DNA of 53,904 nucleotides from Bacteroidota bacterium (GCA_003650365.1 QMPA01000001.1:1-53904), one strand, 5' to 3'; shown: positions 17,927 through 42,986, numbered from the stretch's first letter. Notes: generated by a model from the sequence alone, not told the origin. Program-made: numbers and translations.

Positions 17927-17930
17927 AAAC

Positions 17931-20321: not shown

Positions 20322-20331
20322 GTAATTTTCA

Positions 20332-20364
20332 AGTCAGGGCTTGACTTCAAGCCAAACCCTGACT
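20332..20364 (+). other. Intergenic hairpin (8-bp stem AGTCAGGG/CCCTGACT, 17-nt loop)
   Basis: Perfect inverted repeat between the stop at 20321 and the ATG at 20377. No T-run follows it, so it is not a classical terminator. Confidence 0.35.
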
Positions 20365-20376
20365 ACTAAAGAATTT

Positions 20377-25966: not shown

Positions 25967-26124
25967 GTATTTTAGAAGATATTTATTAACACATATTCCG
26001 TACAAATGTACCAAATAGGACAAATGTAATAATCATTAAAAACTAGTTCAGGTTTTAGTTCTATTTTTGGTTAATTAATAGAAGTCCCCTTAAATACGTT
26101 TTGTACATTTTAGTATTTCAATTC

Positions 26125-26952
26125 ATGATGTTAAGAATAACACAAAAGTTTTTGGTATTCGCTTTAATTACTTATCTGTTTGCTGCTTGCAATTCTGAAA
26201 ATAGACAAACACTTTCAGGCGAAAACGAGCAATTGAGCGGTCAGTTTTTCTTAGTAGGAAAAGGCACATATTTAAAAAAAACCACCTGCGACATAATAGA
26301 AAAATCAGGAATCCGGAAAGGTGGTCATGTCATTATCTTATCGATGGCGGAAAACAAACTCGATTCTTCAGCATTTTTTTTGCAAAAGCAATTTGGCGAA
26401 CAAGAGATTATGGCAGTGCATATTTTTGATTTTGCTGATCGTATTCAGAAAAAACCTTCACCAATTTCCCTTACGAATTCAGAAATTCTTGCTATTGAAA
26501 ATGCCAGTATTATTTGTATTCCTGATGGCAATAGAAATAGTTTTATGAAGCTGGCCAACAATACCCGCTTAAAAAAAGTGCTCCAAAATGCGAAAGCAAA
26601 GGGTGTTTTAATTGTCGGAATTGGAAGTGGAGCATCAGTTTTAGGAGACCATTACTATGCATATGTAAATGATACAGTCTTGAAAAGGTATAAAATAATA
26701 ATGAAACCGGGCCTGGACTTATTGAAAAACACAGTGATTGATAATATTGTATTTATAAGAAATTATAAGGAAGCGATCCAAAAAAACTCCAAAAATAAAA
26801 ATTTTGTTTTTGTTGGTCTTGCTGATACATCCTGCCTGTGGATAAAAGAGAGTAATGCCCGTGTTTTGAGAAAATCTAAAATAGTTTTCATTTTTCCCAA
26901 TAAGCCAATGAAAAAACTTGTTAAAGGCGATGAGCTTATAGGAGTATTTTAG
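26125..26952 (+). CDS. Lipoprotein, cyanophycinase/peptidase S51-like (class I glutamine-amidotransferase-like fold)
   Basis: Lipobox LITYLFAAC. GGHVIILSMAEN, ILAIENASIICIPDGNRNSFMKL and GVLIVGIGSGASVLG resemble the S51 layout. Paralog of 42156-42986. The ORF-track start at 26101 is TTG. Confidence 0.5.
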   Translation: MMLRITQKFLVFALITYLFAACNSENRQTLSGENEQLSGQFFLVGKGTYLKKTTCDIIEKSGIRKGGHVIILSMAENKLDSSAFFLQKQFGEQEIMAVHIFDFADRIQKKPSPISLTNSEILAIENASIICIPDGNRNSFMKLANNTRLKKVLQNAKAKGVLIVGIGSGASVLGDHYYAYVNDTVLKRYKIIMKPGLDLLKNTVIDNIVFIRNYKEAIQKNSKNKNFVFVGLADTSCLWIKESNARVLRKSKIVFIFPNKPMKKLVKGDELIGVF

Positions 26953-27181: not shown

Positions 27182-28564
27182 ATGAAAAAGATACATTTAA
27201 TATTTATTGTCTTGCTAACTATAGGCACAAGCTTAAATGCCCAATGGTATGAACTGGTAACACCGACAATTAATTACGAGATAAAAAGTAATAGCTTTAT
27301 TGATCTTGAAATTAACCTTGATGGAGATCCTTATTTACTGTACAACAGTGTAGTGCCTGACGAGGGTAATAAACTATTTGTTCAGAAATATGATATAGAA
27401 AATGAAGAATGGAGTTTACTCGGAGGTGATTATGTTAACGAATTAAATGCTTCAGATAATCATCTGGCCATCGATTCGAAAGGGGTTGTTTATGTTGCAT
27501 TTTTAAAACTGGGTGTTTATAAAAGAGGTTCCTGGTGTACGGTTATGAAGTTTGACGGAACAGACTGGGTTCAAATCGGTGATTGGAATGCAGGTATTAT
27601 TATGTCGGATGTTACAATGTACTGTGATAATCAGGACGATGTTTATGTTTCTTATTATGATGTAGATACCTATTCGAGGCCAATAGTGAAAAGATACCTT
27701 GGTACTGAAAGTGAATGGGAAACCGTAGGAAACTCTACTTTTGTTGAAGCTGGCCAGTGTCTGGGCCCTGCCCTAACAACCGATAACGATGGCAATGTAC
27801 TGGTTTCCTTTGGTGGTGATAATTTCGGTGGCGGGCTTCCGCTTAATGTAGTAAGGTTCAGTGGAGCTGAATGGGAATATGTAGGTGGCAATGGCATTTG
27901 GGACGAACCCAATTATCCTACTACTGTTATTGTGGGTAAAAATAATGTGATTCATACAACCACAACCGATTTCTGGTCGTTAACAAGTACGGTACTTAAT
28001 TATCAAAATGATGCATGGCAGAACCAGTTTGTTGGTATCGATTCATGGTATATGCCATTTGCAAAGTATAACGATGATGTTTATATGGGATATATTGATC
28101 GCAATATTAATGAAAGAGTAAAAGTGAAAAAAGTTGATCATTCAGGAAATTGGTCTGACATTACAGATCAACCTGGTCCATATTACACAACACCGGTTAT
28201 TCCGAGAACTTATTTTGATTTAGAAGTAGATAGCGAAGGAAACCTTTACATTGCAATGCTAAAAGGTGACCAATGGAATAATCATGTTTCTGTACTTAAA
28301 TTGGATGTTATCACCGGGATTGCTGAACCTCAAGATAAAACAATCACAATCTATCCAAACCCAACAAGTGGGATAATTCATATAAATAAATCGCCAGGTG
28401 AACAAATACAAAACGTTTTGATAGTGGATGTTTCCGGGAAACTTGTATTTCAGCAGAATAGTCCCCCGCAAACACTCGATTTGTCGGACCTGAAAAAGGG
28501 AATTTATTTTATTAGGATAAATACCTCAAAGAATAACTATATCGAAAAATTGCTTATTCGTTAG
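27182..28564 (+). CDS. Secreted protein with T9SS type-A C-terminal sorting domain (paralog)
   Basis: Signal peptide MKKIHLIFIVLLTIGTSLNAQ. C-terminal ITIYPNPTSGIIHI...GIYFIRINTSKNNYIEKLLIR. Collinear with 18948-20321 along its whole length. Confidence 0.8.
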   Translation: MKKIHLIFIVLLTIGTSLNAQWYELVTPTINYEIKSNSFIDLEINLDGDPYLLYNSVVPDEGNKLFVQKYDIENEEWSLLGGDYVNELNASDNHLAIDSKGVVYVAFLKLGVYKRGSWCTVMKFDGTDWVQIGDWNAGIIMSDVTMYCDNQDDVYVSYYDVDTYSRPIVKRYLGTESEWETVGNSTFVEAGQCLGPALTTDNDGNVLVSFGGDNFGGGLPLNVVRFSGAEWEYVGGNGIWDEPNYPTTVIVGKNNVIHTTTTDFWSLTSTVLNYQNDAWQNQFVGIDSWYMPFAKYNDDVYMGYIDRNINERVKVKKVDHSGNWSDITDQPGPYYTTPVIPRTYFDLEVDSEGNLYIAMLKGDQWNNHVSVLKLDVITGIAEPQDKTITIYPNPTSGIIHINKSPGEQIQNVLIVDVSGKLVFQQNSPPQTLDLSDLKKGIYFIRINTSKNNYIEKLLIR

Positions 28565-28595: not shown

Positions 28596-30500
28596 TTAGT
28601 TTGTTGCTGTGTCAATTCTTTTCTTTATTTCTTTCATAAAAGAATCATAATCGGTTTTTGTATTGTTATGCCTGCACTTTAACAGGCTAAGGTATGCTTT
28701 TGAATAATCTTTTTCCAAATAATAAACCTTGGAAAGATTATACAAGCCGGCTTCATAATATGGGAATATTTCAAGAGATTGTTTAAAATAGCCAATTGCC
28801 ATTTTGTTGTCACCCATTACTGATGAGGCTATGGCAAGGTTTTTAAGCACCGACACTTGATAAGGTGAGTATTTTAGAGCAAGTTCAAAGTCAGCCAGTG
28901 CCTGCTTGTGTTTATTTAGTTTCATATTGGCCAAACCCCTGTAATTGTGAATGGGCATTGAGTAATTATCAAGGCTTGTAAGTTTTGTAAATGCTTTATC
29001 AGTATTGATTATCATTTTATTAAAACTGTGGGTTTCCTGTGCCTGAAATATTTTTTTTATGTATATCTCTGAACGGAATAGAATACCGGAATAAATTGTT
29101 GCTAAAGCCAAGGCAATTACTGCCAGAACTTGATAAAGTAAAATGGGTTTTCTACTTTTCTGTTTTGGGTTTTCCGGGTATTTATAATAAACACTTATTA
29201 TTCCTGCCATCATTAACGAAAAATATATCTGGTGATTAATCCTTTCCAGCGGAAATGTAAAAAACGCAATGATAAAATAAGCACCAATTCCTGAAATCAT
29301 TAAGGCTGTAAAGATTAGTTTGTCTTTATCTATTTCCTGATAGATAATTTTAAAACTATAAATAGCAATTATTAGAAATAGAAGCAAATAAAACAGCAGT
29401 CCGAAAATTCCTTTTTCTGACAGCACCCAAAGGAAGTCATTATGGGGGCGCCTCCAGTTTAAAAAATTCGATCCATATTTTTGCTGATAATATGGCAATA
29501 CCGTAATTTTCCAGTTTCCGGCCCCAACGCCAAAAATGAGGTTATCCTTTGCCAAATCCCAGGTAGAACCCCACATTTGTAATCGCCCCTGATTGTTGTC
29601 TGATTGAAAGTCAAAAATTGACGAAATCTGATATTTTATCAATTTCGACATATCCGATTTTTTAATAACCAAGTAACTGCCAGATATTACAGTAAAAACG
29701 ATTATTGCAATTATAATTACCTTTTTTAAAAGGCCCGAATTATTGATTGATTTTTTCTTCAGTGCAATTGCTATCCACAATAGCGTAAAGATGACAATAA
29801 AGACCAGAGTAGCTATCCATACTGAGCGGGTTTGCAAAATTGTAATATTGAGTAGTATCATGGCAGTTGAATATAGGCTGAGTACCCACCACCATTTTTT
29901 AAAATTTAAGATGCCGAATAAAACAAATGGAAGCATTAGGAATAATGAAATGGCAAATTGGTTTTTGTGGGCCATTAGTCCTTTTACCCCATATAATGCC
30001 ATTAGCAAATCATTAGAAGAATTGCCCTGAAAAATGATGAAGTATTGAAACAATCCTATCGTGGTAGCAATTATGGAGCTAAATATCACACTTTTGACCA
30101 ATATTGAAATGAAGTTTTTAGTCTGAATAAAGATTCTTGTAGCAAAAATTAACAGGGTAAACGAAAGCAAGGTTTTGGTGATGTCGTATAAGCCTTCTGC
30201 AGGGTTTATGGCTTGGGTTAGTGAAAAAACCGACAATAGGAAATACAAAAAATACGCACGAAAAATTATTAGTCTGATAAAATCAAATTGAGGTTTATTT
30301 CTCTTGTTTTTACTTAGAAAGATGATTGAAAGAGTTAACATAGTAACCCCCCAAAAAAGCAAGCGGGGCGAGAGATTGGGATCTAATGTTCTTGATGAAA
30401 AAATCAAAGGAATAACAACGATAGTTGATACCAATAAGTAGCACAGATCAATTGGTTTTGATTGCTGTTTTAATTTTGTTCCTGGTGATTCTCTTTTCAT
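28596..30500 (-). CDS. O-antigen ligase/polymerase-like membrane protein with C-terminal TPR domain (paralog)
   Basis: RRPHNDFLWVLSEKGIFGLLFY loop, many TM helices, and a TPR-like C-terminus (YRGLANMKLNKHKQALADFELALKYSP..). Confidence 0.75.
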   Translation of the reverse strand: MKRESPGTKLKQQSKPIDLCYLLVSTIVVIPLIFSSRTLDPNLSPRLLFWGVTMLTLSIIFLSKNKRNKPQFDFIRLIIFRAYFLYFLLSVFSLTQAINPAEGLYDITKTLLSFTLLIFATRIFIQTKNFISILVKSVIFSSIIATTIGLFQYFIIFQGNSSNDLLMALYGVKGLMAHKNQFAISLFLMLPFVLFGILNFKKWWWVLSLYSTAMILLNITILQTRSVWIATLVFIVIFTLLWIAIALKKKSINNSGLLKKVIIIAIIVFTVISGSYLVIKKSDMSKLIKYQISSIFDFQSDNNQGRLQMWGSTWDLAKDNLIFGVGAGNWKITVLPYYQQKYGSNFLNWRRPHNDFLWVLSEKGIFGLLFYLLLFLIIAIYSFKIIYQEIDKDKLIFTALMISGIGAYFIIAFFTFPLERINHQIYFSLMMAGIISVYYKYPENPKQKSRKPILLYQVLAVIALALATIYSGILFRSEIYIKKIFQAQETHSFNKMIINTDKAFTKLTSLDNYSMPIHNYRGLANMKLNKHKQALADFELALKYSPYQVSVLKNLAIASSVMGDNKMAIGYFKQSLEIFPYYEAGLYNLSKVYYLEKDYSKAYLSLLKCRHNNTKTDYDSFMKEIKKRIDTATN

Positions 30501-30881
30501 GGATGTTTACTACTACATTTAAGGCTAGATATTTTTCTCAATTGCTATTTTATTGTGTGTGTTTATTTATGCGATATTGTTAAAGTAGGTTAAGCGTTGG
30601 TCTGCTTTAATATTTGGAAATATGGTCTGAAGTTATACCAAATAAATATCAGAATGGACCTTTTAATAAAAGTATTTCTTCGTTTAGTAAGTTATAAGAT
30701 TTTTTATATCTGCAAGGACGGCAGATTTTTTCAAAGAAAACAATCGGTAAAAGACGAAGTGGTTCATTTTGGTGTATATTCGGTTAAACACTCGCAAAAG
30801 TAAAATATGCTAATGTAAAACTAAATGAATAAATTGAATGAGACAGTCTAAATTCAATTTCCTTATCTCAACAAGTGGAGT

Positions 30882-31102
30882 GTTTTTGATCCTGAATTAC
30901 TAAAACTATAGAGTCATTTAGCTATGGGCGGAACATTTTATAAATGGATTGGCTATTCAATTTTGACTGGAAAGAGGTAAAAGGACAATTTGAAAGGAGA
31001 GAATACAAGCTTGGCTATGTGGTGGTTGTTAACATGTTTAGTCATTCTTCATTAGTTTATATGATAGGCTTAATGTCAGAACCATTTCCGGGTGGTGGCT
31101 AA
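30882..31102 (+). pseudogene. Decayed fragment of a GT2 gene paralogous to 11685-12593
   Basis: Reads VFDPELLKL*SHLAMGGTFYKWIGYSILTGKR*, then after a frameshift GQFERREYKLGYVVVVNMFSHSSLVYMIGLMSE. The intact gene has ILDYKDKELIQNVGGTFNKWIGYSVLLGMGEKDIGQFDKKEIKLDYVIGASMFCHSSLLQKIGLLSD. The fragment has an in-frame TAG at 30909, a TAA at 30978 and a frame change. Confidence 0.75.
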
Positions 31103-31206
31103 AGAGGTAATTACAATTAAATAGAATATTGAAAAAAATTAATAAAAGATGAATATTCAGAGAGTTTTTATCTTTGAACCGAAAACAAAAAAATGAAAAT
31201 GTTATT

Positions 31207-31665
31207 ATGGAATTATTTGAAACTTTAAAAGTAAATGTACCTAATGTAGTGCATGAAACCATTGATGGGGAAACTATTTTACTTGACTTGAAATCAGGGA
31301 ATTATTTTAGTCTGGATGGTGCAGGTGCCGTCATCTGGGAATTTATTGATAAGACTGGAAATTGGGGAGAAGTCATAAATATAATGACTACTGCTAACCA
31401 AAAACAAAAAAATAATATTTCCAATGCTATAGAAAACTTTGTGAAAAAACTTGTAGAAGAACAATTATTGGTCAAAACCGATGTTGGTGTTAAATCAGTG
31501 GAAACACCTGATTTAACAAAACAACTGGTAGATGCTGCCGGGGACTTTAAAATACCATTGGTTAATAAATACTCTGATATGCAGGATCTTCTATTGCTCG
31601 ATCCGATTCATGATGTGGATGAAAAAGGTTGGCCCGAAAGCAAAGACAATCAACCCGAAAGTTAA
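31207..31665 (+). CDS. PqqD-like (RRE-type peptide-binding) protein with ~60-aa acidic C-terminal extension
   Basis: ETIDGETILLDLKSGNYFSLDGAGAVIWEFIDKTGNWGEVINIM has the typical PqqD-family beta-strand/helix pattern. The tail DFKIPLVNKYSDMQDLLLLDPIHDVDEKGWPESKDNQPES ends in Ser. The ORF-track start at 31174 is TTG. The first ATG is at 31207. Confidence 0.7.
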   Translation: MELFETLKVNVPNVVHETIDGETILLDLKSGNYFSLDGAGAVIWEFIDKTGNWGEVINIMTTANQKQKNNISNAIENFVKKLVEEQLLVKTDVGVKSVETPDLTKQLVDAAGDFKIPLVNKYSDMQDLLLLDPIHDVDEKGWPESKDNQPES

Positions 31666-31721
31666 TGCCTGATTATAGTGATTAAACACTTTATTTTCCT
31701 CGATCTTTCACCCACCCTTTT

Positions 31722-32876
31722 ATGAGCAAGAATTCCAATAGCCCTTTTCCAAACAAATCGCAGGAATTGTTATTACAGGCTGCCTTGTTGAAGGGGGAGC
31801 CGATGAAGAAGGCCTGGAATGAGTGGAAGTTGGCTGTCGATTTTGAAAAGGATATAGCGTATGCATCTTTCAGAATGCTCCCACTATTGTACAATAATTT
31901 ACATACACAAGGTGTTAAAGATGCATTAATGCCTCGCCTCAAAGGGATGTATCGCAAGTCATGGTCGAATAATCATTTGCTTTTTCACAAGACGGCCAAA
32001 GTGTTAAAATTATTGCATAGCAATGAAATCCCAACAATAGTTATGAAAGGGATTGCTTTAACGATCGAGGTTTACAAAAATTATAGCGTAAGGCCCATGG
32101 CCGATATGGATATTCTTGTCCCGCTTGCACAATCCGGAAAAACGATTGATATACTTAAAAATGAAGGTTGGATTTTACAAAATGAACAGTACCTGGAATT
32201 CAACCTGAAATATGGCCGCAGTGCTACTTTTCACGATTCCGAAAAAACTGAATTGGACCTGCACTGGCATCCCATTTTTGAAGCTCATGATAATATTTCT
32301 AAAGATGATTTTTGGGATAGCTCTGTATCGCTTGAAGTAGCAGGGGAAAAAACACGTGCTTTTTGTTTGACAGACAACTTTTTCCACACCATTGTACATG
32401 GCTTAAGGTACAATCCCGAACCACCCATTCGCTGGGTTGCCGATGCATTTACAATATTGAATTCAGAAGACTGTATTATTGACTGGAACAGGCTATTGCG
32501 CCATACCAAAAAGTTTAGGGTTTCGCTTCAAATGAAAGATGCATTGAATTATCTTATCGAAAATTTTCAGGCACAGGTTTCCCGGAATTTTCTTGAGGAA
32601 CTTGATAAGATAAAATCAACTTTCTCTGATCGCTTGGTGTTCCATCATGCCAAAAAGTATGGTGACGACAATCCGAAAACGGTGTATGAAAAACTATATT
32701 CAGTTTATGCTGCCTACTTGCGGCAATCAAAACATACTGGCTTATGGGTACAGCACATTGGTTTTGTCAGGTATATGCATTTTCGTACAAAAGAAAAACC
32801 ATATTTCAGAATCTTGATTTATTATTCTTCATTGCTGTTTAAAAAAACGAAAAAAACTAAAATCAAGCCTGATTGA
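31722..32876 (+). CDS. Uncharacterised nucleotidyltransferase family protein (NTP_transf_5-like)
   Basis: IPTIVMKGIALTIEVYKNYSVRPMADMDILVP and ELDLHWHP match the characteristic core of this family. Confidence 0.7.
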   Translation: MSKNSNSPFPNKSQELLLQAALLKGEPMKKAWNEWKLAVDFEKDIAYASFRMLPLLYNNLHTQGVKDALMPRLKGMYRKSWSNNHLLFHKTAKVLKLLHSNEIPTIVMKGIALTIEVYKNYSVRPMADMDILVPLAQSGKTIDILKNEGWILQNEQYLEFNLKYGRSATFHDSEKTELDLHWHPIFEAHDNISKDDFWDSSVSLEVAGEKTRAFCLTDNFFHTIVHGLRYNPEPPIRWVADAFTILNSEDCIIDWNRLLRHTKKFRVSLQMKDALNYLIENFQAQVSRNFLEELDKIKSTFSDRLVFHHAKKYGDDNPKTVYEKLYSVYAAYLRQSKHTGLWVQHIGFVRYMHFRTKEKPYFRILIYYSSLLFKKTKKTKIKPD

Positions 32877-32884
32877 TAAAGAAA

Positions 32885-34579
32885 ATGAGATTGTTCAAAA
32901 AAAATAGGCAAATACTCCCCTACTTTTCTAAGGAAGCATGGCAATATTATATGCAGTTCTTCAAAGGACAGGGCAGGAAAATGATTGCGGTTTCAGCAGG
33001 ATCAACAGCTCAGGCTACCCTCATTATTCCTATTTTACTTTTGGTTAGGTATATCTTCGATGTGGCAATTCCTGCAAAAGATGTTGTGGTGCTTATCTAC
33101 ATAGGATTAGCCATTATTGGGATCAGATTGATTAATGCAGCTACCACGCTTTTCCTGAGAAAAATTAATATTAAAATTGTAACAACGGCTATCTTCAAAC
33201 TTCGTGAAGACCTGATGATTAAGGTTCTTTCGCTTTCCAGATCTTTCTATACGCACGAAGATCAGCGGGTATTGCATACCCGAATTGTCCAGGATACTGA
33301 GCGGATTATGCGGATGAGTAATGCGCTGATATCAAGTCTAATACCTGCCATTTTGATCAGTATCGGACTTGGTGTAATTCTATTGGTATTAAACTGGTTC
33401 CTGTTTCTTGCAATTTTATTGTTTTTCCCGGTTATCTTCTTTTCAAGCCGTTTTATGGGAAAAATTGTTAAAAAGCGTGTATTTGCCTACCAACGGGCTT
33501 TCGAAGGTTTTAGTAAAGGGGTTATGTTTGTTATGAAGTTTTTGGACTTAATAAAAGTTCAATCGGCAGAACCTTATGAAAGTCAAAAACAAATTGAAAC
33601 CCTAAGGGATTTACAGGAAAAAACAACCCGTAGAACATACTTCTTTGCAGTAAACGGGCAGGTGCAAACATTTTTGGTTGGCATTTCCGGTATCATAGTA
33701 ATAGTCATCGGGGGTATTTCTGTAATTAAGGAGATAATGACAATTGGCGACTTTTTTGCTTTCTACATTGCAGCAAACCGTCTTCAATCCACTATCAATA
33801 CCATTACCAGTTCGTTTGCAAATATTGTTACCGGAAACGAATCACTTATTACTTTGTATGATATTGCTTCCAACCGCGAAACAGAGCCTTATTCGGGGAA
33901 TAAAAAGATTGATTTTTCTGGAGATATAAAATTTGAATCGGTTTCATTTAAGTATACCGAAAAACCTGTTTTAAAGGACATTTCGCTACAATTAACACCC
34001 AACAGCAGACTAGCTATAATAGGGGCGAACGGTGCAGGAAAATCAACCATTATTAATTTAATACTGGGGTTTTATGCGCCACAATCCGGAAATATTACTG
34101 CCGATGGAATACCATTTTTAGATGTAGATTTTCAGCACTTTAGAAGATATATTGGTGTTGTATCGCAACATCCATTGCTAATACCTGGAACCATTCGCTA
34201 CAATATTGATTATGGAAGCGAGTGGGCAAATGAGCAGGATGTGCTTACTGCATCCAAACTTGCACTTGCCCATGATTTTATTGCTGAACTTCCCGATGGC
34301 TACGAAACACAGATTGGTGAAGATGGTGTATTGCTTTCGGGAGGTGAGCGGCAAAAAATTGCTATTGCGAGGGCGTTACTTCGACGGCCCAAACTGTTAA
34401 TTCTTGATGAGCCTACCAATCACTTTGATCTTCTAGCAGTGAAAAAAATTATGCAAAGTATTCAAGATATTGATTACTCTCCGGCAATTCTGATTATTAG
34501 TCACGATATGCAAGTAGTAAGTACTGCTAAACAAATTTTCATACTTGAAGATGGCTATCTGAACCCGTATAAAAACTAA
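32885..34579 (+). CDS. ABC exporter, fused permease + ATPase (MsbA/McjD-like architecture)
   Basis: Six-helix N-terminal half. Walker A GANGAGKST, signature LSGGERQKIAIARALL, Walker B LLILDEPTNHFD. No N-terminal C39 peptidase domain. The ATG at 32885 is preferred over the TTG at 32873. Confidence 0.9.
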   Translation: MRLFKKNRQILPYFSKEAWQYYMQFFKGQGRKMIAVSAGSTAQATLIIPILLLVRYIFDVAIPAKDVVVLIYIGLAIIGIRLINAATTLFLRKINIKIVTTAIFKLREDLMIKVLSLSRSFYTHEDQRVLHTRIVQDTERIMRMSNALISSLIPAILISIGLGVILLVLNWFLFLAILLFFPVIFFSSRFMGKIVKKRVFAYQRAFEGFSKGVMFVMKFLDLIKVQSAEPYESQKQIETLRDLQEKTTRRTYFFAVNGQVQTFLVGISGIIVIVIGGISVIKEIMTIGDFFAFYIAANRLQSTINTITSSFANIVTGNESLITLYDIASNRETEPYSGNKKIDFSGDIKFESVSFKYTEKPVLKDISLQLTPNSRLAIIGANGAGKSTIINLILGFYAPQSGNITADGIPFLDVDFQHFRRYIGVVSQHPLLIPGTIRYNIDYGSEWANEQDVLTASKLALAHDFIAELPDGYETQIGEDGVLLSGGERQKIAIARALLRRPKLLILDEPTNHFDLLAVKKIMQSIQDIDYSPAILIISHDMQVVSTAKQIFILEDGYLNPYKN

Positions 34580-34602
34580 GATGGAAAAATAGAAAAAGAA
34601 AA

Positions 34603-35331
34603 ATGCAAGAAAAGAAAAACAAAACTTTAGAAACAACTCACCCATTGGTCAGCATCATTATTCCCACATACAATCATGGAAAATATTTACATGATGCACT
34701 AAGCAGTGTTTTTGCTGATTCATATTCACCCAAAGAAGTAATTGTTGTAAACGATGGTTCAACTGATAATACTGCCGAAATTGCAGCGTCATTTCCTCAT
34801 CTGCAATATATTTATCAAAAAAACCAAGGTGTTGCAGTGGCACGAAATACTGGAGTTCGAGCTGCAAAAGGTAAATACATAGCCTTTCTCGATAGTGATG
34901 ATATTTGGATGGCCGGACGCATAAAACGCACAATTGACTATTTTTTAAAACATCCTGATGTTGAATATGTGCTTGCTCAACAAAAAATGTTTCTGGAAAA
35001 GGATTACCCAAAACCTGCACATATTGAACAAGCATGGTTAGAAAAGCCGATAGATACATCGGGCTCTGGTGTATTAACTGTGCGACGTTCTTGCTTTGAA
35101 AAGATTGGGCTTTTTAACCCTGATTATCAGATAGGCGAGGACACGGAGTGGTTTCTTAGGGCAAACGAGGCAAATATACTGGTGGGCAGAATGGATTTTG
35201 TTGCTATCAAACGAAGGATTCATGGTGCAAACCTTACAGTTGCCCAAGTTAAAGAAGCCAGGTTTAGTTTGTTTAAAATGATGAAGGAATCGATTGAGAG
35301 AAAAAAGGGGGCAGCATCGAAAAATAGTTGA
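34603..35331 (+). CDS. Family 2 glycosyltransferase
   Basis: VSIIIPTYNHGKYLHDALSSVF..VIVVNDGSTDNT, FLDSDD, and later GEDTEWFLRA. Confidence 0.85.
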   Translation: MQEKKNKTLETTHPLVSIIIPTYNHGKYLHDALSSVFADSYSPKEVIVVNDGSTDNTAEIAASFPHLQYIYQKNQGVAVARNTGVRAAKGKYIAFLDSDDIWMAGRIKRTIDYFLKHPDVEYVLAQQKMFLEKDYPKPAHIEQAWLEKPIDTSGSGVLTVRRSCFEKIGLFNPDYQIGEDTEWFLRANEANILVGRMDFVAIKRRIHGANLTVAQVKEARFSLFKMMKESIERKKGAASKNS

Positions 35332-35335
35332 AATA

Positions 35336-37891
35336 ATGGATAAACCTGTCAAAACAGAAATTGAACAAATTGCCTTTTATCAGCAATGTTTAAGCAGATT
35401 TGATCAAGCTGCTAAAAACACAGGGATAGTCCACAGGTATTATTCAATTGCCGGAACGCATGTTTGTTTGTGTTTTGCCGGTGAGGCAATGATTCCGTAC
35501 ATGACACCTGCGCTCGAACATTTACGCATACCTGAAATGTCAAATCCTGACATGACGATTCATGTTTGGGATACTTTTTCCACAAAAATAGAAATGCCAC
35601 CACCACCATGCGAATGGGCCGATTTTACCGATAGAGGTGATATTTGGGGTTTTAACAGCAAGCGGATAAAAACTGCTTTTCACTGGAGCGAGTATTCTGT
35701 AAATGTGATGGATATGCTTTCCAACTCGGGAGTGTATTGGGTTAAAAACCCCAAAGCACTGCCATATTGGGTTTATTCCTCTCCTTTTCGGTCGATGATA
35801 CAATGGTGGATGGAGAAAAACAATTGCCAGCTTCTCCATGCGGCAGCAGTTGGCACCGAAAATGGAGCCGTTTTAATTACAGGAAAAGGAGGTGTTGGAA
35901 AATCAACCACTGCCATCAGTAGTATCAATGCCGGTTTGTTTTATCTATCAGATGATTATGTGATTGTAAAAAAAGGAAGCGATCCCAAAGTTTATAGCCT
36001 TTATTCTACGGCAAAGCTGAATATGGAGGATATGCCGAAGTTTCCAACATTGCAAAAGTTTGCCGGACAGGTTGTTGAAGAAGACCAGGAAAAAGCTGTA
36101 TTGTTTCTTTATCCGGAACTTAAAAATCAGCTAAAAAGGGAAATGCCACTTAAAGCTATTCTTACGCCTAAAATTATTGAACAGAAAAACAGCGAAATTT
36201 TACAAACTTCTTTTTGGCCTGTTCAGCGGGCGATGTCGTTTACCACCATGTCGCAACTTCCAGGCGTTGGAAGCCATACCCACCAATACATCAGTGCGCT
36301 CACCAAACAATTACCCTGTTATACCATTGGTTTGGGAAGGGATTTGAATGAGATACCGAAGGTTATTGCTAACTTATTGGCGCATCCCGAAAATTTTACT
36401 TTTCAGAATATTGAAACAAATCAACATGTTGAATACCCACTTATTAGCATTGTTATGCCTGTTTTTAATGGTGAACGCTTTATCAATGAAGCCATTGAAA
36501 ATATACTAAATCAAAACTATCCTGCCATTGAAATTATTATTATTGATGATGGTTCGACCGATAACTCAAAAACAGTAATTGATGAACTGCCGGTTGATGT
36601 ACGTTATTTCCACCAGCCCAATGCCGGACCTGGTGCAGCCCGAAATCGTGGTATCAGGGATGTGTCAGGAGATTATATAGCATTTTTAGATGTTGATGAT
36701 TTGTGGCCCGAAAAAAATCTGGAAATGCTGATGAACCACTTGCAACAAAATCCTAAGCTGGATATTGTAAGGGGATATGCACAGTTGCTAAATGTTGATG
36801 ATGATGGAAAGGCAATATATATTGGAAATCCGCAGGAGTCATTTCCTGATTATATTGGTGCCGGATTGTACCGGAAATCGGTTTTTAGTACTGTTGGATT
36901 GTATGATCCTGAATTGAGGTTTGGCGAAGATGGTGATTGGTTTAACCGGGCACAGGAAATAAATACAAACATAAAAAGGCTAGATGAAGTTACGCTGTAC
37001 GTGCGCCGTCATGATAAGAACATGACAGAGGGCAAAAGCCTGGTAGAACTCAATATGCTCAAAGTGTTTAAAAAGAAATTGGAAAGGACGCGCAATCAGA
37101 AGCCTCTTGAGTCTGCTACCCCTTCTAAAAATACGAACATATCCAATCCATTGATTAGTGTAATTATCCCGGTTTATAATGGTGCAGCATTTTTGGCCGA
37201 TGCTATAAGCAGCGTTTTGAACCAGCACCATAACCCGCTCGAGATTATTGTGGTTGACGATGGTTCAACCGACAAAACTGCTGAGGTAGTACAAATGATG
37301 GCCGACAACATCAAATATATTTTTCAGGAAAACAAAGGTGTTGCGGCTGCCCGAAATAAAGGACTGGAAATGGCCAGAGGAACATACATTGCTTTTTTGG
37401 ATGCTGATGATGTTTGGGGTGAAAGCAAACTCGCACGACAGATTGAACTATTGAATGAAAATACAACAATTGGTGGTGTAATTGGTTCAACCTATCAAAT
37501 ACCGCTTTCGATGGAATTGGAACAGGCATTTTCTGAATCAGTAGAAAAAGGCATGTTTATGATGTGTCTTGGTGGCTCGCTTTTCAGGAAAAGTGTTTTT
37601 AAAAAAGTGGGTAATTTTGATGAAGAAATGTTTTCTGCGGAGGATATTGACTGGTTTTTTAGAGCAAGGGAATCAAAGCTTCATATTCTTATCCATAAGG
37701 ATGTTGTCCTGTATTTTAGGCTGCACGGAAAAAATATTTCCAACGACAAAAAAAAGGTAAATTTCTATCTTTTAAAAGCCTATAAAAAATCAATAAGTCG
37801 ACGGAAAAAATCAGGAAAAAATCAGACAATAAAATTTCCAAAGCTTGATAATGTTGATGAGGTGATGAAGTTTTGGCAATCGAACGATTGA
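35336..37891 (+). CDS. Three-domain fusion: HPr-kinase-like P-loop domain + GT2 + GT2
   Basis: The N-terminal ~375 aa contain LHAAAVGTENGAVLITGKGGVGKSTTAISSINAGLFYLSDDYVIV, the same layout as the HprK/P C-terminal catalytic domain (P-loop at 35882-35908). GT2 domain 1 is ISIVMPVFNGERFI..IIIIDDGSTDNS..FLDVDD. GT2 domain 2 is ISVIIPVYNGAAFL..IIVVDDGSTDKT..FLDADD. The ATG at 35336 lies 5 nt after the upstream stop. Confidence 0.75.
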   Translation: MDKPVKTEIEQIAFYQQCLSRFDQAAKNTGIVHRYYSIAGTHVCLCFAGEAMIPYMTPALEHLRIPEMSNPDMTIHVWDTFSTKIEMPPPPCEWADFTDRGDIWGFNSKRIKTAFHWSEYSVNVMDMLSNSGVYWVKNPKALPYWVYSSPFRSMIQWWMEKNNCQLLHAAAVGTENGAVLITGKGGVGKSTTAISSINAGLFYLSDDYVIVKKGSDPKVYSLYSTAKLNMEDMPKFPTLQKFAGQVVEEDQEKAVLFLYPELKNQLKREMPLKAILTPKIIEQKNSEILQTSFWPVQRAMSFTTMSQLPGVGSHTHQYISALTKQLPCYTIGLGRDLNEIPKVIANLLAHPENFTFQNIETNQHVEYPLISIVMPVFNGERFINEAIENILNQNYPAIEIIIIDDGSTDNSKTVIDELPVDVRYFHQPNAGPGAARNRGIRDVSGDYIAFLDVDDLWPEKNLEMLMNHLQQNPKLDIVRGYAQLLNVDDDGKAIYIGNPQESFPDYIGAGLYRKSVFSTVGLYDPELRFGEDGDWFNRAQEINTNIKRLDEVTLYVRRHDKNMTEGKSLVELNMLKVFKKKLERTRNQKPLESATPSKNTNISNPLISVIIPVYNGAAFLADAISSVLNQHHNPLEIIVVDDGSTDKTAEVVQMMADNIKYIFQENKGVAAARNKGLEMARGTYIAFLDADDVWGESKLARQIELLNENTTIGGVIGSTYQIPLSMELEQAFSESVEKGMFMMCLGGSLFRKSVFKKVGNFDEEMFSAEDIDWFFRARESKLHILIHKDVVLYFRLHGKNISNDKKKVNFYLLKAYKKSISRRKKSGKNQTIKFPKLDNVDEVMKFWQSND

Positions 37892-38061
37892 TGTAAGTTT
37901 TGCGAAAACAATCACTATAGAACTGGAAACACCATAATTGGCTTAGTAATGAAGGTACTTAATGGAATACAATTTTTTGTAGTGGACATACAAAATATGC
38001 AGAAAAGAAACGTTTGATGTTTTCCTGTAATTAATTATCATCAAAACATAACTTATTTATC

Positions 38062-38754
38062 ATGTCGAAAAAACAAGAGATTAGTGTCGTTATTCCTGTG
38101 TATAATACAGAAAAGTATTTGGATCAGGCCATTGAAAGTGTGTTGAAGCAAAATGAAAAACCCTTGGAAATTATTGTCGTAGATGATGCCTCAAGCGACA
38201 ACAGCATAAATGTTGCAGAGCAATTTGGTAATAAAATTACACTACTGAAGCAGCCTAATAATAATGGTTGTGGGGCATCACGAAATCGTGGGATTGAGCA
38301 TGCAAATGGAAAATATCTGGCTTTTATTGATGCCGATGATTTATGGACGAGTGGTAAACTAAAGAATCAACTTGCTTATCTTGAAAATAATCCGGACATC
38401 GATATGGTATTTGGAATGGTGGAACAATTTATCAGTCCTGAATTATCAGATATTGATAAAAATAAACTGCGTGATGAATTAAAAAAAATGCCAGGTTATG
38501 TGGCAGGGGCCATGCTCATCTGCAAAGAAACTTTTCTGAAAGTGGGCTTGTTAAATGAAAAACTTGAACTTGGTGAATATATCGATTGGTTCAGCCGGGC
38601 AAAAGATATGGGATTGAAATTTCACCTGTCTGACGCTGTGGTACTAAAGCGACGTATTCATACAAGCAATATGGGTATTTATAAGCGCCAACATCTCAAA
38701 GACTATACGGCTATCCTCAGGGAAGCACTGGCACGAAAACGTATGAAAAAATAG
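38062..38754 (+). CDS. Family 2 glycosyltransferase
   Basis: ISVVIPVYNTEKYLDQAIESVL..IIVVDDASSDNS..FIDADD. Confidence 0.85.
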   Translation: MSKKQEISVVIPVYNTEKYLDQAIESVLKQNEKPLEIIVVDDASSDNSINVAEQFGNKITLLKQPNNNGCGASRNRGIEHANGKYLAFIDADDLWTSGKLKNQLAYLENNPDIDMVFGMVEQFISPELSDIDKNKLRDELKKMPGYVAGAMLICKETFLKVGLLNEKLELGEYIDWFSRAKDMGLKFHLSDAVVLKRRIHTSNMGIYKRQHLKDYTAILREALARKRMKK

Positions 38755-38758
38755 AAAC

Positions 38759-39493
38759 ATGTCGCTGTCTATGAATAAAACTAAGTTTATCCTTTTTGTG
38801 CAAGGACGATCGGGAAGTAACCTTTTGCGCGATCTTTTAAATGCCCATCCCGATATTCAATGCGATAGTGAGTTGTTTAAGGCAGACCCAAATCATATTA
38901 CAGCCCAGAAGATCAACAAGATCATTTTAAAAATCCCAGCTTCATTTGTCGAATCGCGTTGTCGGCTTTCCAAGCAGAATGTTTATGGTTTTGTACTCAT
39001 GGATTACCACTTAAAAAATCCCGGAGTATTAATAAAGCAACTTTATCAATCAGGATGGAAGATTATTTATGTATCGAGAAATGATCTGATGGCTCAGTGT
39101 TTTTCAAATCTTTTAGCACAAAAAACCAATCACTGGCACAACCGATCGAATAAGTTAGAAGCAACTTATAAAGTGAAAATTACAAAAGAAGAACTGTTAG
39201 ACGAGTTGAACTGGTGGGTGGCAAGAAAGAAAAATGAAGAAAACATCCTTAAAGGAATAAAAGCTTACCATGTAATTTATGAAGACAATTTGCAGGACAA
39301 GGCAGATTGGCCCAATACTACACATAAACTCTTTGAATATCTTGGTGTAGATCCGGTTCCTGTTAGCTCCACTTTTCAAAAAACATATTCGCGTCACTAT
39401 TCCGACATTATCAATAACTATGATGAGTTAATGGATTCATTAAAAAATACAACATATCAACATTTAATTCCTGATCAATTCAAAGCATTATAA
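38759..39493 (+). CDS. Stf0-like sulfotransferase (paralog 1 of 3)
   Basis: FILFVQGRSGSNLLRDLL (PAPS P-loop) and IIYVSRNDLMAQCFSNLLAQKTNHWH, which follows the Stf0-type R-x-D..Q..S..A..T pattern. Confidence 0.7.
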   Translation: MSLSMNKTKFILFVQGRSGSNLLRDLLNAHPDIQCDSELFKADPNHITAQKINKIILKIPASFVESRCRLSKQNVYGFVLMDYHLKNPGVLIKQLYQSGWKIIYVSRNDLMAQCFSNLLAQKTNHWHNRSNKLEATYKVKITKEELLDELNWWVARKKNEENILKGIKAYHVIYEDNLQDKADWPNTTHKLFEYLGVDPVPVSSTFQKTYSRHYSDIINNYDELMDSLKNTTYQHLIPDQFKAL

Positions 39494-39505
39494 ATTGACC
39501 AAGAA

Positions 39506-40222
39506 ATGAAACAAAAAACAAATTTCATTGTGTTTGGACAAGGTCGTTCGGGAAGTAACCTGCTGGTAGATCTGTTGAATTCGCATCCAGCTATTCATTG
39601 TGATATGGAATTATTGAATAAAAATCAGTTGGCAAGAAAAAACAAAATATTCCGATCGTTTGTTTATAATTTCCCATACCATTACATCAAACGAAAGATG
39701 AAAAGGAGTAGTAGTAAACTTTATGGGTTTAAACTCATGTACCACCAATTAGAGAATCATGAAAAAATAAGGCCTAAACTGTTCAACGAAAACTGGAAAA
39801 TTATTCATATTCAACGAAAAGATATTTTTGCACAAACACTTTCTACTCTTATTGCTAAAAAGACAGGAAAGTATATTCGCAAGCACCAAGATGTGGTTGA
39901 TAATATAGTTTTACGCATTGAACCCCAAAATGTTGCTGAAGATATAAGCCTCAGGTTAAGAGCTATAAAATACGAATTAGAAGTACTGATCGGACTAAAC
40001 TACTTTGACGTGGTGTATGAAAATGACCTGGCCGACAGTAACAGTTGGAATGAAAGTATGGAAGGTGTTTTTAAGTATCTTGGTGTGCCACCTATAGAAG
40101 TTTCAGCAACGACTTTAAAAACAGATAACAGAACAAATGAAGAAAGAATATCGAATTATTCTGAAATTTTAGAATACTTGAGTAATTCCAAGTTTAGTTA
40201 CTTACTTGAGCAAAAAGCCTAA
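39506..40222 (+). CDS. Stf0-like sulfotransferase (paralog 2 of 3)
   Basis: FIVFGQGRSGSNLLVDLL and IIHIQRKDIFAQTLSTLIAKKTGKY. Confidence 0.7.
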   Translation: MKQKTNFIVFGQGRSGSNLLVDLLNSHPAIHCDMELLNKNQLARKNKIFRSFVYNFPYHYIKRKMKRSSSKLYGFKLMYHQLENHEKIRPKLFNENWKIIHIQRKDIFAQTLSTLIAKKTGKYIRKHQDVVDNIVLRIEPQNVAEDISLRLRAIKYELEVLIGLNYFDVVYENDLADSNSWNESMEGVFKYLGVPPIEVSATTLKTDNRTNEERISNYSEILEYLSNSKFSYLLEQKA

Positions 40223-40250
40223 TTCTGAAAACATATTTCATCCATTAACT

Positions 40251-40961
40251 ATGCTACAAAATAAAAAAACCGGGTTTATTATATACGGACAAGGTAGGTC
40301 GGGAAGTACTCTCCTGAAACAATTGTTCAATTCACATCCTGAAATTAATTGTGAAGGGGAATTGCTAAACATAAAGGAAAATTATGTGACCAACCCATTC
40401 CTGGTAAAACTTGTAAATAAATTCCCTTTCAGGTTCTTCAATTTTCGCAGACAGATTTCAAAACTACCTGTTTACGGCTTTACCCTCTTACAATACCAAA
40501 TATCTAATCATCGGAAAATGCTGTTAAAAATGCAGGCTTCCAGATGGAAAATCATTCACCTTATTCGTGAAGATTCATTTGAGCAAAGCTTATCACATTT
40601 TGTTGCAAAGCAAACCAATTTTTGGCACAGGCGAATGGAGAAGGAAAATACAACTCCTTCTATTTTTATCGATCCTATTGCATTTTCTTCCTGGTATGTC
40701 AGGTTAGAAAAAAACAAAAAACGTTCAGAGCATTTTCTGAAGCATATTGAACATAAAACAGTTTTATATGAGCAAGATTTGTCGAATGAAAAGCAATGGC
40801 CCGAAACCATGAAAAGCTTATTTGCGTTTCTTGGTGTCAGGAATTCCCCAGTCAATGCATCACTTAAAAAAACCTATAAGAAGCCCTATTCGCAAATTGT
40901 GGAAAATTATGATGAATTATTAGAAAGTATCAGACAAAACGACATCACTTCAAATTTCTGA
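40251..40961 (+). CDS. Stf0-like sulfotransferase (paralog 3 of 3)
   Basis: FIIYGQGRSGSTLLKQLF and IIHLIREDSFEQSLSHFVAKQTNFWH. The ATG at 40251 is preferred over the TTG at 40206, which overlaps the upstream gene. Confidence 0.7.
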   Translation: MLQNKKTGFIIYGQGRSGSTLLKQLFNSHPEINCEGELLNIKENYVTNPFLVKLVNKFPFRFFNFRRQISKLPVYGFTLLQYQISNHRKMLLKMQASRWKIIHLIREDSFEQSLSHFVAKQTNFWHRRMEKENTTPSIFIDPIAFSSWYVRLEKNKKRSEHFLKHIEHKTVLYEQDLSNEKQWPETMKSLFAFLGVRNSPVNASLKKTYKKPYSQIVENYDELLESIRQNDITSNF

Positions 40962-42155: not shown

Positions 42156-42986
42156 TTGAAGACATTAATCAAGTTAGTAGTTATATCTGTCCTTATCATC
42201 ATTATTTCTGCCTGCAATTTTGAAAAAAGGAAACAAGCGTCCGGCGACACTGAAAGTAGTAAGCCGGGCAGTCAGGTGTTTTTAATTGGAAATGAGTTCA
42301 ATATAAAAAAAGCCGTTAATAAAATGATTGAAAAATCAGGAATTAGAAACGGTGGCTATGTTGTGATTATTCCTACATCATTTCAAGTAAATGATAGAAA
42401 GGCCAAATTATTAAGCAAGGAATTTAACAAGCAAGGGATTGTGGCAGTTCATGTATTAGGTTTCCCTTTTAAACCCAAAGAGGAATCATCCCGGATGTCA
42501 ATAAAAAATACGGATGTTCTTGCCATTGAAAATGCAAGTATCCTTTGCCTTCTTGATGGAAAAATAAATAAATTTATGAAGTTGGCCAAAGAAACCCGCC
42601 TGAAAAAAGCATTGCTAAAAGCAAAAGAAAAGGGTACACTGATTGCCGGGATTGGCAATGGAGCATCTATTTTGGGGGATAATTATTTTTTTTGGTTTAA
42701 GGATAAAAAAACAAACAAGAAAAAAATTGCATTGACACCGGGGTTGGGATTGTTGGAGAATACTGTTGTAGACGATCTTACTTTCTTAAAGAATAACAGG
42801 AAGAGAATAAGAAAAGAAACCAGTAGGGAAAACTTCCTGTTTATTGGAATGGCTAAAAAGGCTTCTGTTTATATTGAAGGTATAGATGCTGTTGTTTTAA
42901 GCGAGACAGAAATTAGCTTGGTGCATCCCGATTCAACTGCAATAAAGCTTGGTATTGGAGATAAGTTTTTCCTGCTGCCAAAATAA
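42156..42986 (+). CDS. Lipoprotein, cyanophycinase/peptidase S51-like (paralog)
   Basis: Lipobox IIIISAC. GGYVVIIPTSF, VLAIENASILCLLDGKINKFMKL, GTLIAGIGNGASILG. TTG start as given in the ORF track, with no nearby in-frame ATG. Confidence 0.5.
   Translation: MKTLIKLVVISVLIIIISACNFEKRKQASGDTESSKPGSQVFLIGNEFNIKKAVNKMIEKSGIRNGGYVVIIPTSFQVNDRKAKLLSKEFNKQGIVAVHVLGFPFKPKEESSRMSIKNTDVLAIENASILCLLDGKINKFMKLAKETRLKKALLKAKEKGTLIAGIGNGASILGDNYFFWFKDKKTNKKKIALTPGLGLLENTVVDDLTFLKNNRKRIRKETSRENFLFIGMAKKASVYIEGIDAVVLSETEISLVHPDSTAIKLGIGDKFFLLPK

Follow-up and report, generated by a model that had tools for sequence, protein, structure and literature searches.

Recurrent fusion of an HprK/PEPCK-like phosphotransferase to family 2 glycosyltransferases within a widespread bacterial gene cassette that encodes a PqqD-type recognition protein

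Within a 53,904-nucleotide stretch of DNA from a Bacteroidota bacterium (GCA_003650365.1 QMPA01000001.1:1-53904, hereafter the window), a single gene at positions 35336..37891 of the plus strand encodes a protein of 851 amino acids (aa) in which a P-loop phosphotransferase of the HprK/PEPCK superfamily (PEPCK, phosphoenolpyruvate carboxykinase) is followed by two family 2 glycosyltransferase (GT2) domains, as assigned from the open reading frame (ORF), its translation, and its Pfam and NCBIfam domains. Judged from sequence comparisons, this HprK/PEPCK-like phosphotransferase::GT2::GT2 gene is the centre of a conserved and widespread gene cassette that also encodes a PqqD protein, which contains a recognition element (RRE) of the kind known from peptides that are made on the ribosome and modified after translation (RiPPs). 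The reading that we prefer, for which the chances appear evenly balanced, is that the cassette would build a sulfated oligosaccharide, primed by phosphorylation, on an acceptor, probably a peptide, presented by the RRE protein.

The frame listed for the target gene begins at a TTG codon (35294..37891, plus strand), and the ATG at 35336, from which the 851-aa product is counted, lies 4 nt past the stop codon of the upstream GT2 gene. As the target protein and its homologues have the N-terminus MxKPxKTExEQ in common, 35336 is likely to be the true start codon. An open frame of 851 codons in DNA of about 38% G+C, with homologues in the hundreds, is far beyond chance. Every motif quoted in an earlier note on this DNA (the original prediction) was found in the translation, namely LHAAAVGTENGAVLITGKGGVGKSTTA...YLSDDYVIV at aa 167-212 (LHAAAVG...GKGGVGKSTTA...YLSDDYVIV), FLDVDD at aa 450-455 and FLDADD at aa 687-692.

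The first 350 residues form a module that is two-lobed, as is PEPCK. Its second lobe, the HprK-like catalytic core (aa 161-350; 35816..36385, plus strand), was recognised with the Hpr_kinase_C and HprK_rel profiles and with Foldseek, and contains H168 (35837-35839), the Walker A motif GKGGVGKS (35882-35905) and the pair D206-D207 (35951-35956), all on the plus strand. This P-loop lobe keeps the HprK spacing His-x15-GxxGxGKS-x(15-16)-DD, and LH168...G183KGGVGKS190...D206D207 lines up column for column with the HprK structures 1ko7 and 1jb1. The possibility of a P-loop that had degenerated in homologues, raised in the original prediction, was checked in 117 sequences, among which H168, G188, K189, S190, D206 and D207 are invariant. 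In the PDB, HprK chains were the best sequence matches, at E 0.011 when the target sequence alone was the query and at 3e-4 when a family profile was. On the N-terminal 365 aa, NCBIfam models for HprK_rel_B (E 1.7e-8), for HprK_rel_A (E 2.3e-7, positions 94-278 of the 280 in the model) and for HprK itself (E 1.1e-5) were found.

Structure prediction led to the same superfamily. A Foldseek search with the full-length model (mean predicted local distance difference test score, pLDDT, 81; predicted TM-score, pTM, 0.64) was dominated by matches to the GT-A fold, and the N-terminal module was therefore modelled on its own; the AlphaFold2 model of aa 1-365, built from 97 sequences, reached a mean pLDDT of 92.3. 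Its P-loop lobe matched Lactobacillus casei HprK/P (1jb1; E 1.5e-6, target-normalised TM-score, TMt, 0.59), and the whole module matched ATP-dependent PEPCK (E 3e-10, query-normalised TM-score, TMq, 0.52-0.58 over about 400 columns) with both lobes superposed. HprK/P and PEPCK share one fold. The HprK-like P-loop domain that had been proposed for the N-terminus is thereby upheld at the level of the superfamily: the module is an HprK/PEPCK-superfamily P-loop phosphotransferase, which has the P-loop lobe spacing and the fold in common with HprK/P (1jb1, 1ko7, 1knx) and ATP-PEPCK (2py7, 1aq2).

The module is not a bona fide HprK/P, because all curated thresholds were failed, the N-lobe is different, and the context of the phosphotransferase system (PTS) is absent. 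Pfam model PF07475 (Hpr_kinase_C) covers aa 167-219 with 26.5-27.4 bits, under its gathering score of 33.3, and TIGR00679 gives 24.9 bits against a cutoff of 240. The sequence match to HprK spans just about 50 residues and does not include an HprK-type N-terminal domain. Past the DD pair the target reads YVIVKKGSDPKVYSLY and is without an EIRG-type signature, an E-I-R-G-type motif at this place being what we take to be a signature of HprK. No PTS genes or HPr context were encountered among the window ORFs scanned. The N-lobe (aa 1-160; 35336..35815, plus strand), which was delimited by conservation in the 117 homologues and by pLDDT values above 90, is without any Pfam match and has its own set of invariant residues (R100, G101, D102, W104, G105, S108, F115, H116, E119, S121, N123, D126 and W135). 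With PEPCK, in turn, the identity is only about 10-13%, and the target has none of the metabolic context of that enzyme.

The remainder of the protein consists of two glycosyltransferase domains, on which PF00535 (Glycos_transf_2) scores 247.9 bits in two stretches, above threshold for both. The first (aa 366-590; 36431..37105, plus strand; pLDDT about 90) has GT-A structures as its top Foldseek matches and contains DDGS (aa 404-407), the DxD motif D452-V-D454-D455 (36689-36700, plus strand, from the translation) and GEDGDW (aa 530-535); D405, D452, D454, D455, E531 and D532 are invariant in the 117 homologues. A low-confidence linker at the fusion junction (about aa 588-602; 37097..37141, plus strand; pLDDT below 50 at aa 590-602) leads to the second domain (aa 603-851; 37142..37891, plus strand; best Pfam stretch aa 608-755), which has VDDGS (aa 640-644), its own DxD motif D689-A-D691-D692 (37400-37411, plus strand, from the translation), AEDIDW, and the acidic pair E769-D770. 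The second GT2 was modelled at lower confidence, with no alignment depth. Single-domain Foldseek matches for the GT-A fold were 6p61 (TMt 0.85), WrtF, TarP and ppGalNAc-T. In many relatives the ED of the second domain is changed to EF; the DxD is held in 17/17 fusions. Both GT2 domains are complete, and the DxD that the original prediction had reported for each of them was borne out.

Residues 603-849 of the target are closest to stand-alone GT2s of other cassettes (49% with GT2_249 of locus L001, 45% with GT2_256 of locus L002), and the window and L002 both total four GT2 domains. On these grounds the second domain is a neighbouring cassette gene that became joined to the target, with no special design, and such joining or separation has happened repeatedly.

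One might suspect that the fusion is an assembly error or a frameshift by which an HprK::GT2 gene was merged with the GT2 gene that comes after it. The closest two-domain relative, in L002 (67% identity over aa 1-587), stops at the position of the linker, and a separate gene for a 256-aa GT2 begins there with a 4-nt overlap, such that one indel could fuse the two; moreover, L017 has a split of 600 + 221 aa where near-identical contigs have 821 aa. Against this explanation stands the recurrence of the three-domain gene. The Bacteroidales metagenome-assembled genome JAKIVD010000031.1 (L004, a GTDB representative) has an 852-aa ORF with 70% identity over residues 1-851, the same synteny and a linker of like length, and 15 metagenome contigs carry three-domain ORFs of 821-861 aa with 47-65% identity. 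Fusions with linkers of similar length occur in L004, L010 and L012 (62-70% identity), the fusion recurs in 13 more divergent contigs from independent samples, and the His, the Walker A motif, the DD pair and both DxD motifs are intact in 17/17 three-domain genes. These independent fused orthologues rule out the artefact, to which we assign a negligible probability, and the single polypeptide is genuine, as had been supposed.

A search with the N-terminal module returned 689 relatives, of which the best 120 are described here. Nearly all of these 120 are about 590-620 aa long (a few are shorter and partial) and all have a GT2, that is, they consist of an HprK-like domain plus one GT2. Their sources include Bacteroidota, Balneolaceae, Rhodohalobacter, Planctomycetota, Nitrospirota and Smithella/Deltaproteobacteria, among others, and where they are labelled at all, they are called "glycosyltransferase" or "hypothetical protein". 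Complete genes in the loci fetched comprise 54 of the form HprK::GT2 and 17 of the form HprK::GT2::GT2, the three-domain form occurring in roughly a quarter of the sampled loci; three-domain relatives also form several clusters at 50% identity, reaching down to 29% identity. Further arrangements are a permuted GT2::HprK (11 representatives), HprK::GT2x3 (one), and stand-alone HprK-like proteins. The architecture, which the original prediction had not recognised, is therefore not unique, given the large HprK-like::GT2 family and its other domain orders, and not a rarity; what holds is that the family is unstudied. In the literature searched, no description of the fused family or of the cassette was found; in Firmicutes lasso clusters, genes for GT2, HPr kinase and nucleotidyltransferase have been recorded as separate neighbours (PMC7533575).

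In a neighbour-joining tree of N-terminal modules, the three-domain forms fall into at least four clades and are mixed among the two-domain forms, kinase and GT2 having undergone fusion or fission in at least 4 separate clades. Such a recurrent fusion is a "Rosetta stone" link between the kinase-like module and the GT2 enzymes.

Some members of the family deserve mention in their own right. The permuted form, GT2 then HprK-like, of about 580 aa is represented by P0262, P0277, P0278, P0287, P0290, P0296, P0302 and P0304; P0320 (1059 aa) has an HprK-like domain followed by three GT2 domains; and P0244 and P0247 (about 830 aa) have a third part that is unlike an active GT2. The split in L017 (4632-6431 plus the next gene, a 221-aa GT2), compared with the 821 aa of L015 and L016, reflects natural fission or else a frameshift of the L017 contig.

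The compact gene set to which the fusion belongs extends over 31207-40961 of the window, all genes being on the plus strand. It begins with the PqqD/RRE protein (31207..31665; 152 aa from the ATG; PF05402, 38 bits), a nucleotidyltransferase-fold protein of family PF14907 (NTP_transf_5; 31722..32876; 133 bits against a cutoff of 31.2), an MsbA-like ABC exporter with ABC_membrane and ABC_tran domains on a single polypeptide (32873..34579), and a small stand-alone GT2 (34603..35331; 242 aa; PF00535, 121.7 bits), which is a paralogue of the fused domains, with 33-39% identity to the other cassette GT2s. Downstream of the target are a second small stand-alone GT2 (38062..38754; 230 aa; PF00535, 126.3 bits; 70% identity to GT2_229 of L002) and three tandem sulfotransferase-like genes (38759-39493, 39506-40222 and 40206-40961; Sulfotransfer_3 with 28-38 bits against a cutoff of 27, and weak Stf0 matches). 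The same sulfotransferase-like trio follows the cassette in L002.

The composition of the cassette was counted over those loci with enough flanking DNA, 39 upstream and 34 downstream. Upstream of kinase::GT2, the PqqD protein is present in 37/39 loci, the PF14907 protein likewise in 37/39, and the ABC exporter in 24/39; downstream, further GT2 genes are found in 23/34 and sulfotransferase-like genes in 11/34. In loci with a complete downstream flank the cassettes contain varying numbers of GT2 domains, about 2 to 6, which suggests a defined oligosaccharide with one glycosyltransferase per linkage. The neighbourhoods beyond the cassette are unrelated across contigs from Rhodohalobacter, Desulfobacterota-like bacteria, Planctomycetota and Balneolaceae; among isolates, Rhodohalobacter sp. 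614A (GCA_021462415.1) carries the cassette.

The PqqD protein is of particular interest for the nature of the acceptor. Its residues 13-88 form an RRE like that of lasso B1 proteins, the closest solved structures being TbiB1 (5v1u, E 6e-7) and PbaB1 (9x90, E 2e-3). The RRE is followed by a near-invariant tail motif, NKYSDMQDLLLLDPIHDVDEKGWPE (31564-31638, plus strand), that was recognised in the family alignment; its cross-phylum form is nKY[S/T]DMqDLLLLDPIHDVdExGWPE, also written NKY[S/T]DMQDLLLLDPIHDVDE.GWPE. The tail-bearing family numbers 1178 proteins, the best 120 of which are 142-182 aa long, and in these 120 sequences D124, M125, L131, D132, P133, I134, H135, G141, W142 and P143 are invariant, the tail being conserved more strongly than the RRE domain itself. 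A hypervariable C-terminal end rich in E, K, P and D (median 9 aa) follows. The LLDPIH portion of the tail has a loose likeness to [Y/W]xxPx[L/V], the leader motif to which lasso-type RREs bind. We would regard the tail as a family-specific docking or cis-leader-like element.

A Ser in this tail had also been considered as the phosphate acceptor, an idea that fared less well. Position 123 is S in 89, T in 24, A in 4 and I in 3 of the 120 sequences, position 145 is S in 55/120, a Ser past GWP occurs in 90/153 sequences, and P0184, P0187 and P0194 are without Ser/Thr in either the motif or the terminal segment; the C-terminal residue of the family is variable as well. Because the tail has no invariant Ser/Thr, and in some members none at all, the tail or its C-terminal Ser is unlikely to be a universal acceptor and is disfavoured in this role.

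A related scenario is that the PqqD protein is a self-contained precursor, combining recognition element and substrate, with the tail as a built-in leader and with the hypervariable end, or the tail, being phosphorylated and glycosylated. It is the sole small protein conserved in the cassette, the succession of a tail more conserved than the RRE and a hypervariable segment recalls the leader-then-core pattern of RiPPs, and the distance of 12 between P133 and S145 would equal the Pro-Thr spacing in the leader YxxPxVLxHQxIxFET of the linear polyphosphorylated peptides (LPPs) that are introduced below; furthermore, the plain 88-aa lasso-type PqqD protein of L045 lacks the tail. Yet the acceptor residues are not invariant, as stated, Thr is not accepted by the LPP kinase LppK (PMC13381572), and about 25 near-invariant residues across phyla better fit a protein-docking motif, all of which makes this scenario quite improbable.

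The closest precedents for the cassette come from peptide-modifying systems. The HprK-like kinases of lasso clusters, PadeK, ThcoK and PsmK, phosphorylate Ser, often several times (PMC8498205, PMC6993621), and additions of +162/+324 Da, that is, one or two hexoses on the Ser phosphate, depend on PsmN, whose annotation is that of an uncharacterised NTP transferase (PMC6993621). In Bacillota, the LPP core (genes LppK / LppN / LppB / LppD / LppS) consists of a SpI-like peptidase, a discrete RRE, LppK, LppN and an MsbA-like pump (Popov et al. 2026, PMC13381572). LppK polyphosphorylates Ser3; LppN was inactive in the host used and a partner was suspected; and the LPP clusters, described as Bacillota-restricted, sit in capsule loci rich in glycosyltransferases (GTs), it having been left unclear whether these GTs take part (PMC13381572).

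With the LPP systems the window cassette has in common an HprK-like kinase, an NTP transferase, a lasso-type RRE as a discrete protein, an exporter like MsbA, and a location in or adjoining GT-rich polysaccharide loci. PsmN and LppN are presumably members of PF14907; the window protein shares their annotation as an uncharacterised nucleotidyltransferase/NTP transferase. In contrast to the LPP systems, the kinase is of a distant clade and fused to one or two GT2s, the invariant tail of the RRE protein is unique to it, genes for sulfotransferase-like proteins have been added, and neither a SpI-like leader peptidase nor a recognisable precursor with a YxxP leader was found in the window; the range of the cassette, unlike that described for the LPPs, takes in Bacteroidota, Balneolaceae, Planctomycetota, Nitrospirota, Smithella/Deltaproteobacteria and Kuenenia. 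The paeninodin and pseudomycoidin systems resemble the window in placing an HprK-like kinase beside a similarly annotated nucleotidyltransferase-fold protein and a B1-type RRE, and the chemistry of pseudomycoidin, a Ser phosphate carrying one or two hexoses, is the phospho-linked sugar that the original prediction had envisaged. They differ from it in their lasso cyclase, B2 protease and precursor, none of which was found in the window, and in that true GT2 domains, linked covalently with the kinase, would account for glycosyl transfer in the window; a total of four GT2 domains together with sulfotransferase-like genes also implies a much larger glycan. What was already known is a peptide-modification core of kinase, NTP transferase, RRE and exporter, and what is new is the GT2 fusion, the tail of the RRE protein and the sulfotransferase-like genes.

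A kinship with these systems is underlined by four loci (L035, L042, L045 and L048) in which a lasso-type module directly adjoins the cassette. In L045 (2710-5899), it consists of a PF14907 protein (432 aa), the plain PqqD/B1 protein, an HprK-like protein (330 aa) and a lasso-B2-like protein with a transglutaminase core (167 aa); no cyclase or obvious precursor was found near modules of this type.

On the basis of these precedents the following pathway can be proposed, of which we infer the acceptor, the order of the steps and the chemistry. The P-loop module would use ATP to phosphorylate a hydroxyl, most likely that of a Ser in a peptide to which the lasso-B1-like RRE protein is bound, and the PF14907 enzyme would ready this phosphate for the first sugar, as in pseudomycoidin. 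The two fused and two stand-alone GT2s, four in all, would each add one sugar from a nucleotide sugar; the sulfotransferase-like proteins would then decorate the chain and the ABC pump would export the product. Fusion of the kinase to one or two GT2s would tie priming as well as elongation to a single scaffold. A joint action of kinase and GT2 is argued by their repeated fusion in both domain orders, and a peptide is favoured as the acceptor because the RRE is near-obligate and lasso-B1-like, because PsmK and LppK provide precedents, and because the cassette travels without Wzx. The coupling of phosphotransfer to glycosyl transfers that had been suggested earlier has thus gained precedents in PsmK/PsmN (PMC6993621) and the LppK set (PMC13381572), its chemistry being plausible rather than proven.

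Several observations weigh against this pathway, the first being the search for a substrate. No plausible precursor ORF exists in 30500-31206 or in 37892-38061, the 170-nt gap after the target; L002 has no room for a precursor gene; and when 776 small ORFs without overlaps, taken from 88 loci, were clustered all against all, none proved to be conserved other than the PqqD protein itself and two, a DUF2784 membrane protein and a chagasin-like inhibitor, that belong to one lineage. The ORFs upstream of the second module in L035, L042, L045 and L048 likewise included no precursor, and the intergenic regions of the window just named contained no candidate that combines a [Y/W]xxP leader with an acceptor Ser, although it could be encoded elsewhere in the genome. 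Neither a leader peptidase (B2 or SpI-like) nor a cyclase is present among the window ORFs scanned, and a B2-like gene is confined to the separate module beside the cassette in loci of the L045 type. As for the enzymes, the phosphotransferase module is under every curated HprK cutoff, far under in the case of the NCBIfam models, its closest overall two-lobed fold is that of PEPCK, a small-molecule enzyme, the stand-alone lasso-type HprK-like kinase is just about 21% identical to the P-loop lobe of the window, and the exporter (275 bits for MsbA, 259 for the HepA family and 187 for PglK, each under its own cutoff) is equally like flippases of lipid-linked glycans. Finally, the window is a large sulfated-glycan locus of the Wzx/Wzy type around the cassette, with Bac_transf, Wzx, Wzy_C, GT4/GT2, AlgX/MBOAT, at least 10 sulfotransferase-like genes, and proteins with sorting tails of the type IX secretion system (T9SS), the last of which point to Bacteroidota.

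These observations lend themselves to an alternative without a peptide acceptor, namely a lipid-linked or free glycan pathway in which undecaprenyl (pyro)phosphate, or some other primer that is not a peptide, would receive the oligosaccharide. The PEPCK/HprK-like module would then phosphorylate a sugar or a chain end (for priming, modification or termination), the MsbA/PglK-like pump would flip the product, a Wzy_C-TPR protein would transfer it outside, and the PqqD protein would be a mere adaptor. The exopolysaccharide-type character of the window locus, the resemblance of the exporter to MsbA, PglK and HepA, the better superposition of the whole N-terminal module on a small-molecule kinase and the missing precursor gene all agree with such a pathway. 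So does a gene for a membrane protein with Wzy_C (O-antigen-ligase-like) and TPR domains, the divergent neighbour of the PqqD gene (28596..30500, minus strand; Wzy_C 76.8 bits), homologues of which adjoin the cassette in seven other loci (L016, L017, L018, L059, L071, L072 and L077); this protein may be linked to the cassette as a periplasmic transfer step. One can add that, with its two GT-A domains in tandem, the full model has K4CP (chondroitin polymerase) and PmHS2 (heparosan synthase), both polysaccharide synthases, as its top hits in Foldseek. The sulfotransferase-like genes near the target recall glycosaminoglycan-like products. However, the K4CP and PmHS2 matches are weak (16-22% identity, TM 0.22-0.37, rmsd about 20 A) and reflect only the presence of two GT-A domains per chain, the domain arrangement probably being different and the GT2s of the target being paralogues of separate cassette genes.

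Other evidence also stands against the glycan pathway. The lasso-B1-like RRE is present in 37/39 loci, and peptide binding is the sole known role of the RRE fold; a priming phosphoglycosyl transferase (Bac_transf) occurs in just 3 of the fetched loci besides the window, and Wzx in no fetched locus (27 loci are of at least 12 kb); and the characterised HprK-like relatives all phosphorylate a Ser of a protein or peptide (PMC8498205, PMC13381572). Taken together, a pathway without a peptide acceptor is rather unlikely, and phosphorylation-primed assembly on an RRE-presented peptide is the reading that we retain.

A broader and more tentative proposal, one that we ourselves hold to be doubtful, is that the cassettes represent a phylum-spanning and undescribed class of pathway, in which a (pyro)phosphorylated residue on an RRE-bound peptide would replace the undecaprenyl phosphate primer. 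The product would be a proteoglycan-like phosphoglycan-peptide with a multi-sugar sulfated chain, exported by the MsbA-like pump and, in some lineages, handed on to the Wzy_C-TPR protein, and the tail of the PqqD protein would serve as a docking handle for the kinase, the NTP transferase and the GT2s.

The implications depend on the acceptor. Pairs of an HprK-like kinase and an NTP transferase have recently been shown to define paeninodin, pseudomycoidin and LPP, the final products and roles of which are unknown; if a phosphoglycan-peptide is indeed made, the cassette would reveal which partners are missing from the paeninodin and Bacillota LPP systems and to what final chemistry these lead. 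The repeated kinase-GT2 fusion in both orders is gene-fusion evidence that places phosphorylation and multi-step glycosylation in one pathway, and the cassette carries the kinase/NTP transferase module far past the Bacillota into many environmental phyla and adds sulfation. If the acceptor is not a peptide, there would still be a new kinase-glycosyltransferase family in glycan assembly, with an RRE fold used without a peptide.

A number of features in and around the window remain to be recorded. In about 5/7 loci the Wzy_C-TPR homologue is encoded immediately upstream of PqqD, and its carriers are mostly loci with the three-domain fusion; a second membrane protein with Wzy_C and TPR is encoded at 264-2435 (plus strand) of the window. 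The sulfotransferase-like genes, of the Sulfotransfer_1/2/3/4 types, are located at 10835-11683, 13554-15314, 17327-17926, 17889-18731, 23899-24513 (minus strand), 25436-26023 (minus strand) and 38759-40961, and at least 10 of them in one glycan locus of about 40 kb give the impression of a surface-glycan island that is unusually heavy in sulfation. Between two Sulfotransfer_4 genes, at 24517-25436 (minus strand), overlapping ORFs encode a radical SAM protein (24897-25436, 179 aa) and a SPASM protein (24517-24930, 137 aa), which are probably one frameshifted or split radical SAM/SPASM gene, either a pseudogene or the result of a sequencing error. Two proteins of about 460 aa with a T9SS sorting domain (Por_Secre_tail) are encoded in the 18948-21243 region and at 27182-28564, the first being directly followed by an intact radical SAM/SPASM gene of 300 aa (20341-21243); radical SAM/SPASM genes come after the cassette in L007 and L045 as well. 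Proteins of about 460 aa in L001 and L009 were considered as conserved members of the cassette or relatives of the Por_Secre_tail proteins and rejected, as they have no similarity to any window ORF. Paralogous Peptidase_S51 genes (dipeptidase E / cyanophycinase-like) flank the region at 26101-26952 and 42156-42986. In loci of a deltaproteobacterial-type lineage, the gene for the DUF2784 membrane protein (about 125 aa) is the immediate upstream neighbour of the PqqD gene (at 7717-8094 in L007, and in eight further loci), and the chagasin-family (I42) peptidase inhibitor is found downstream in five.

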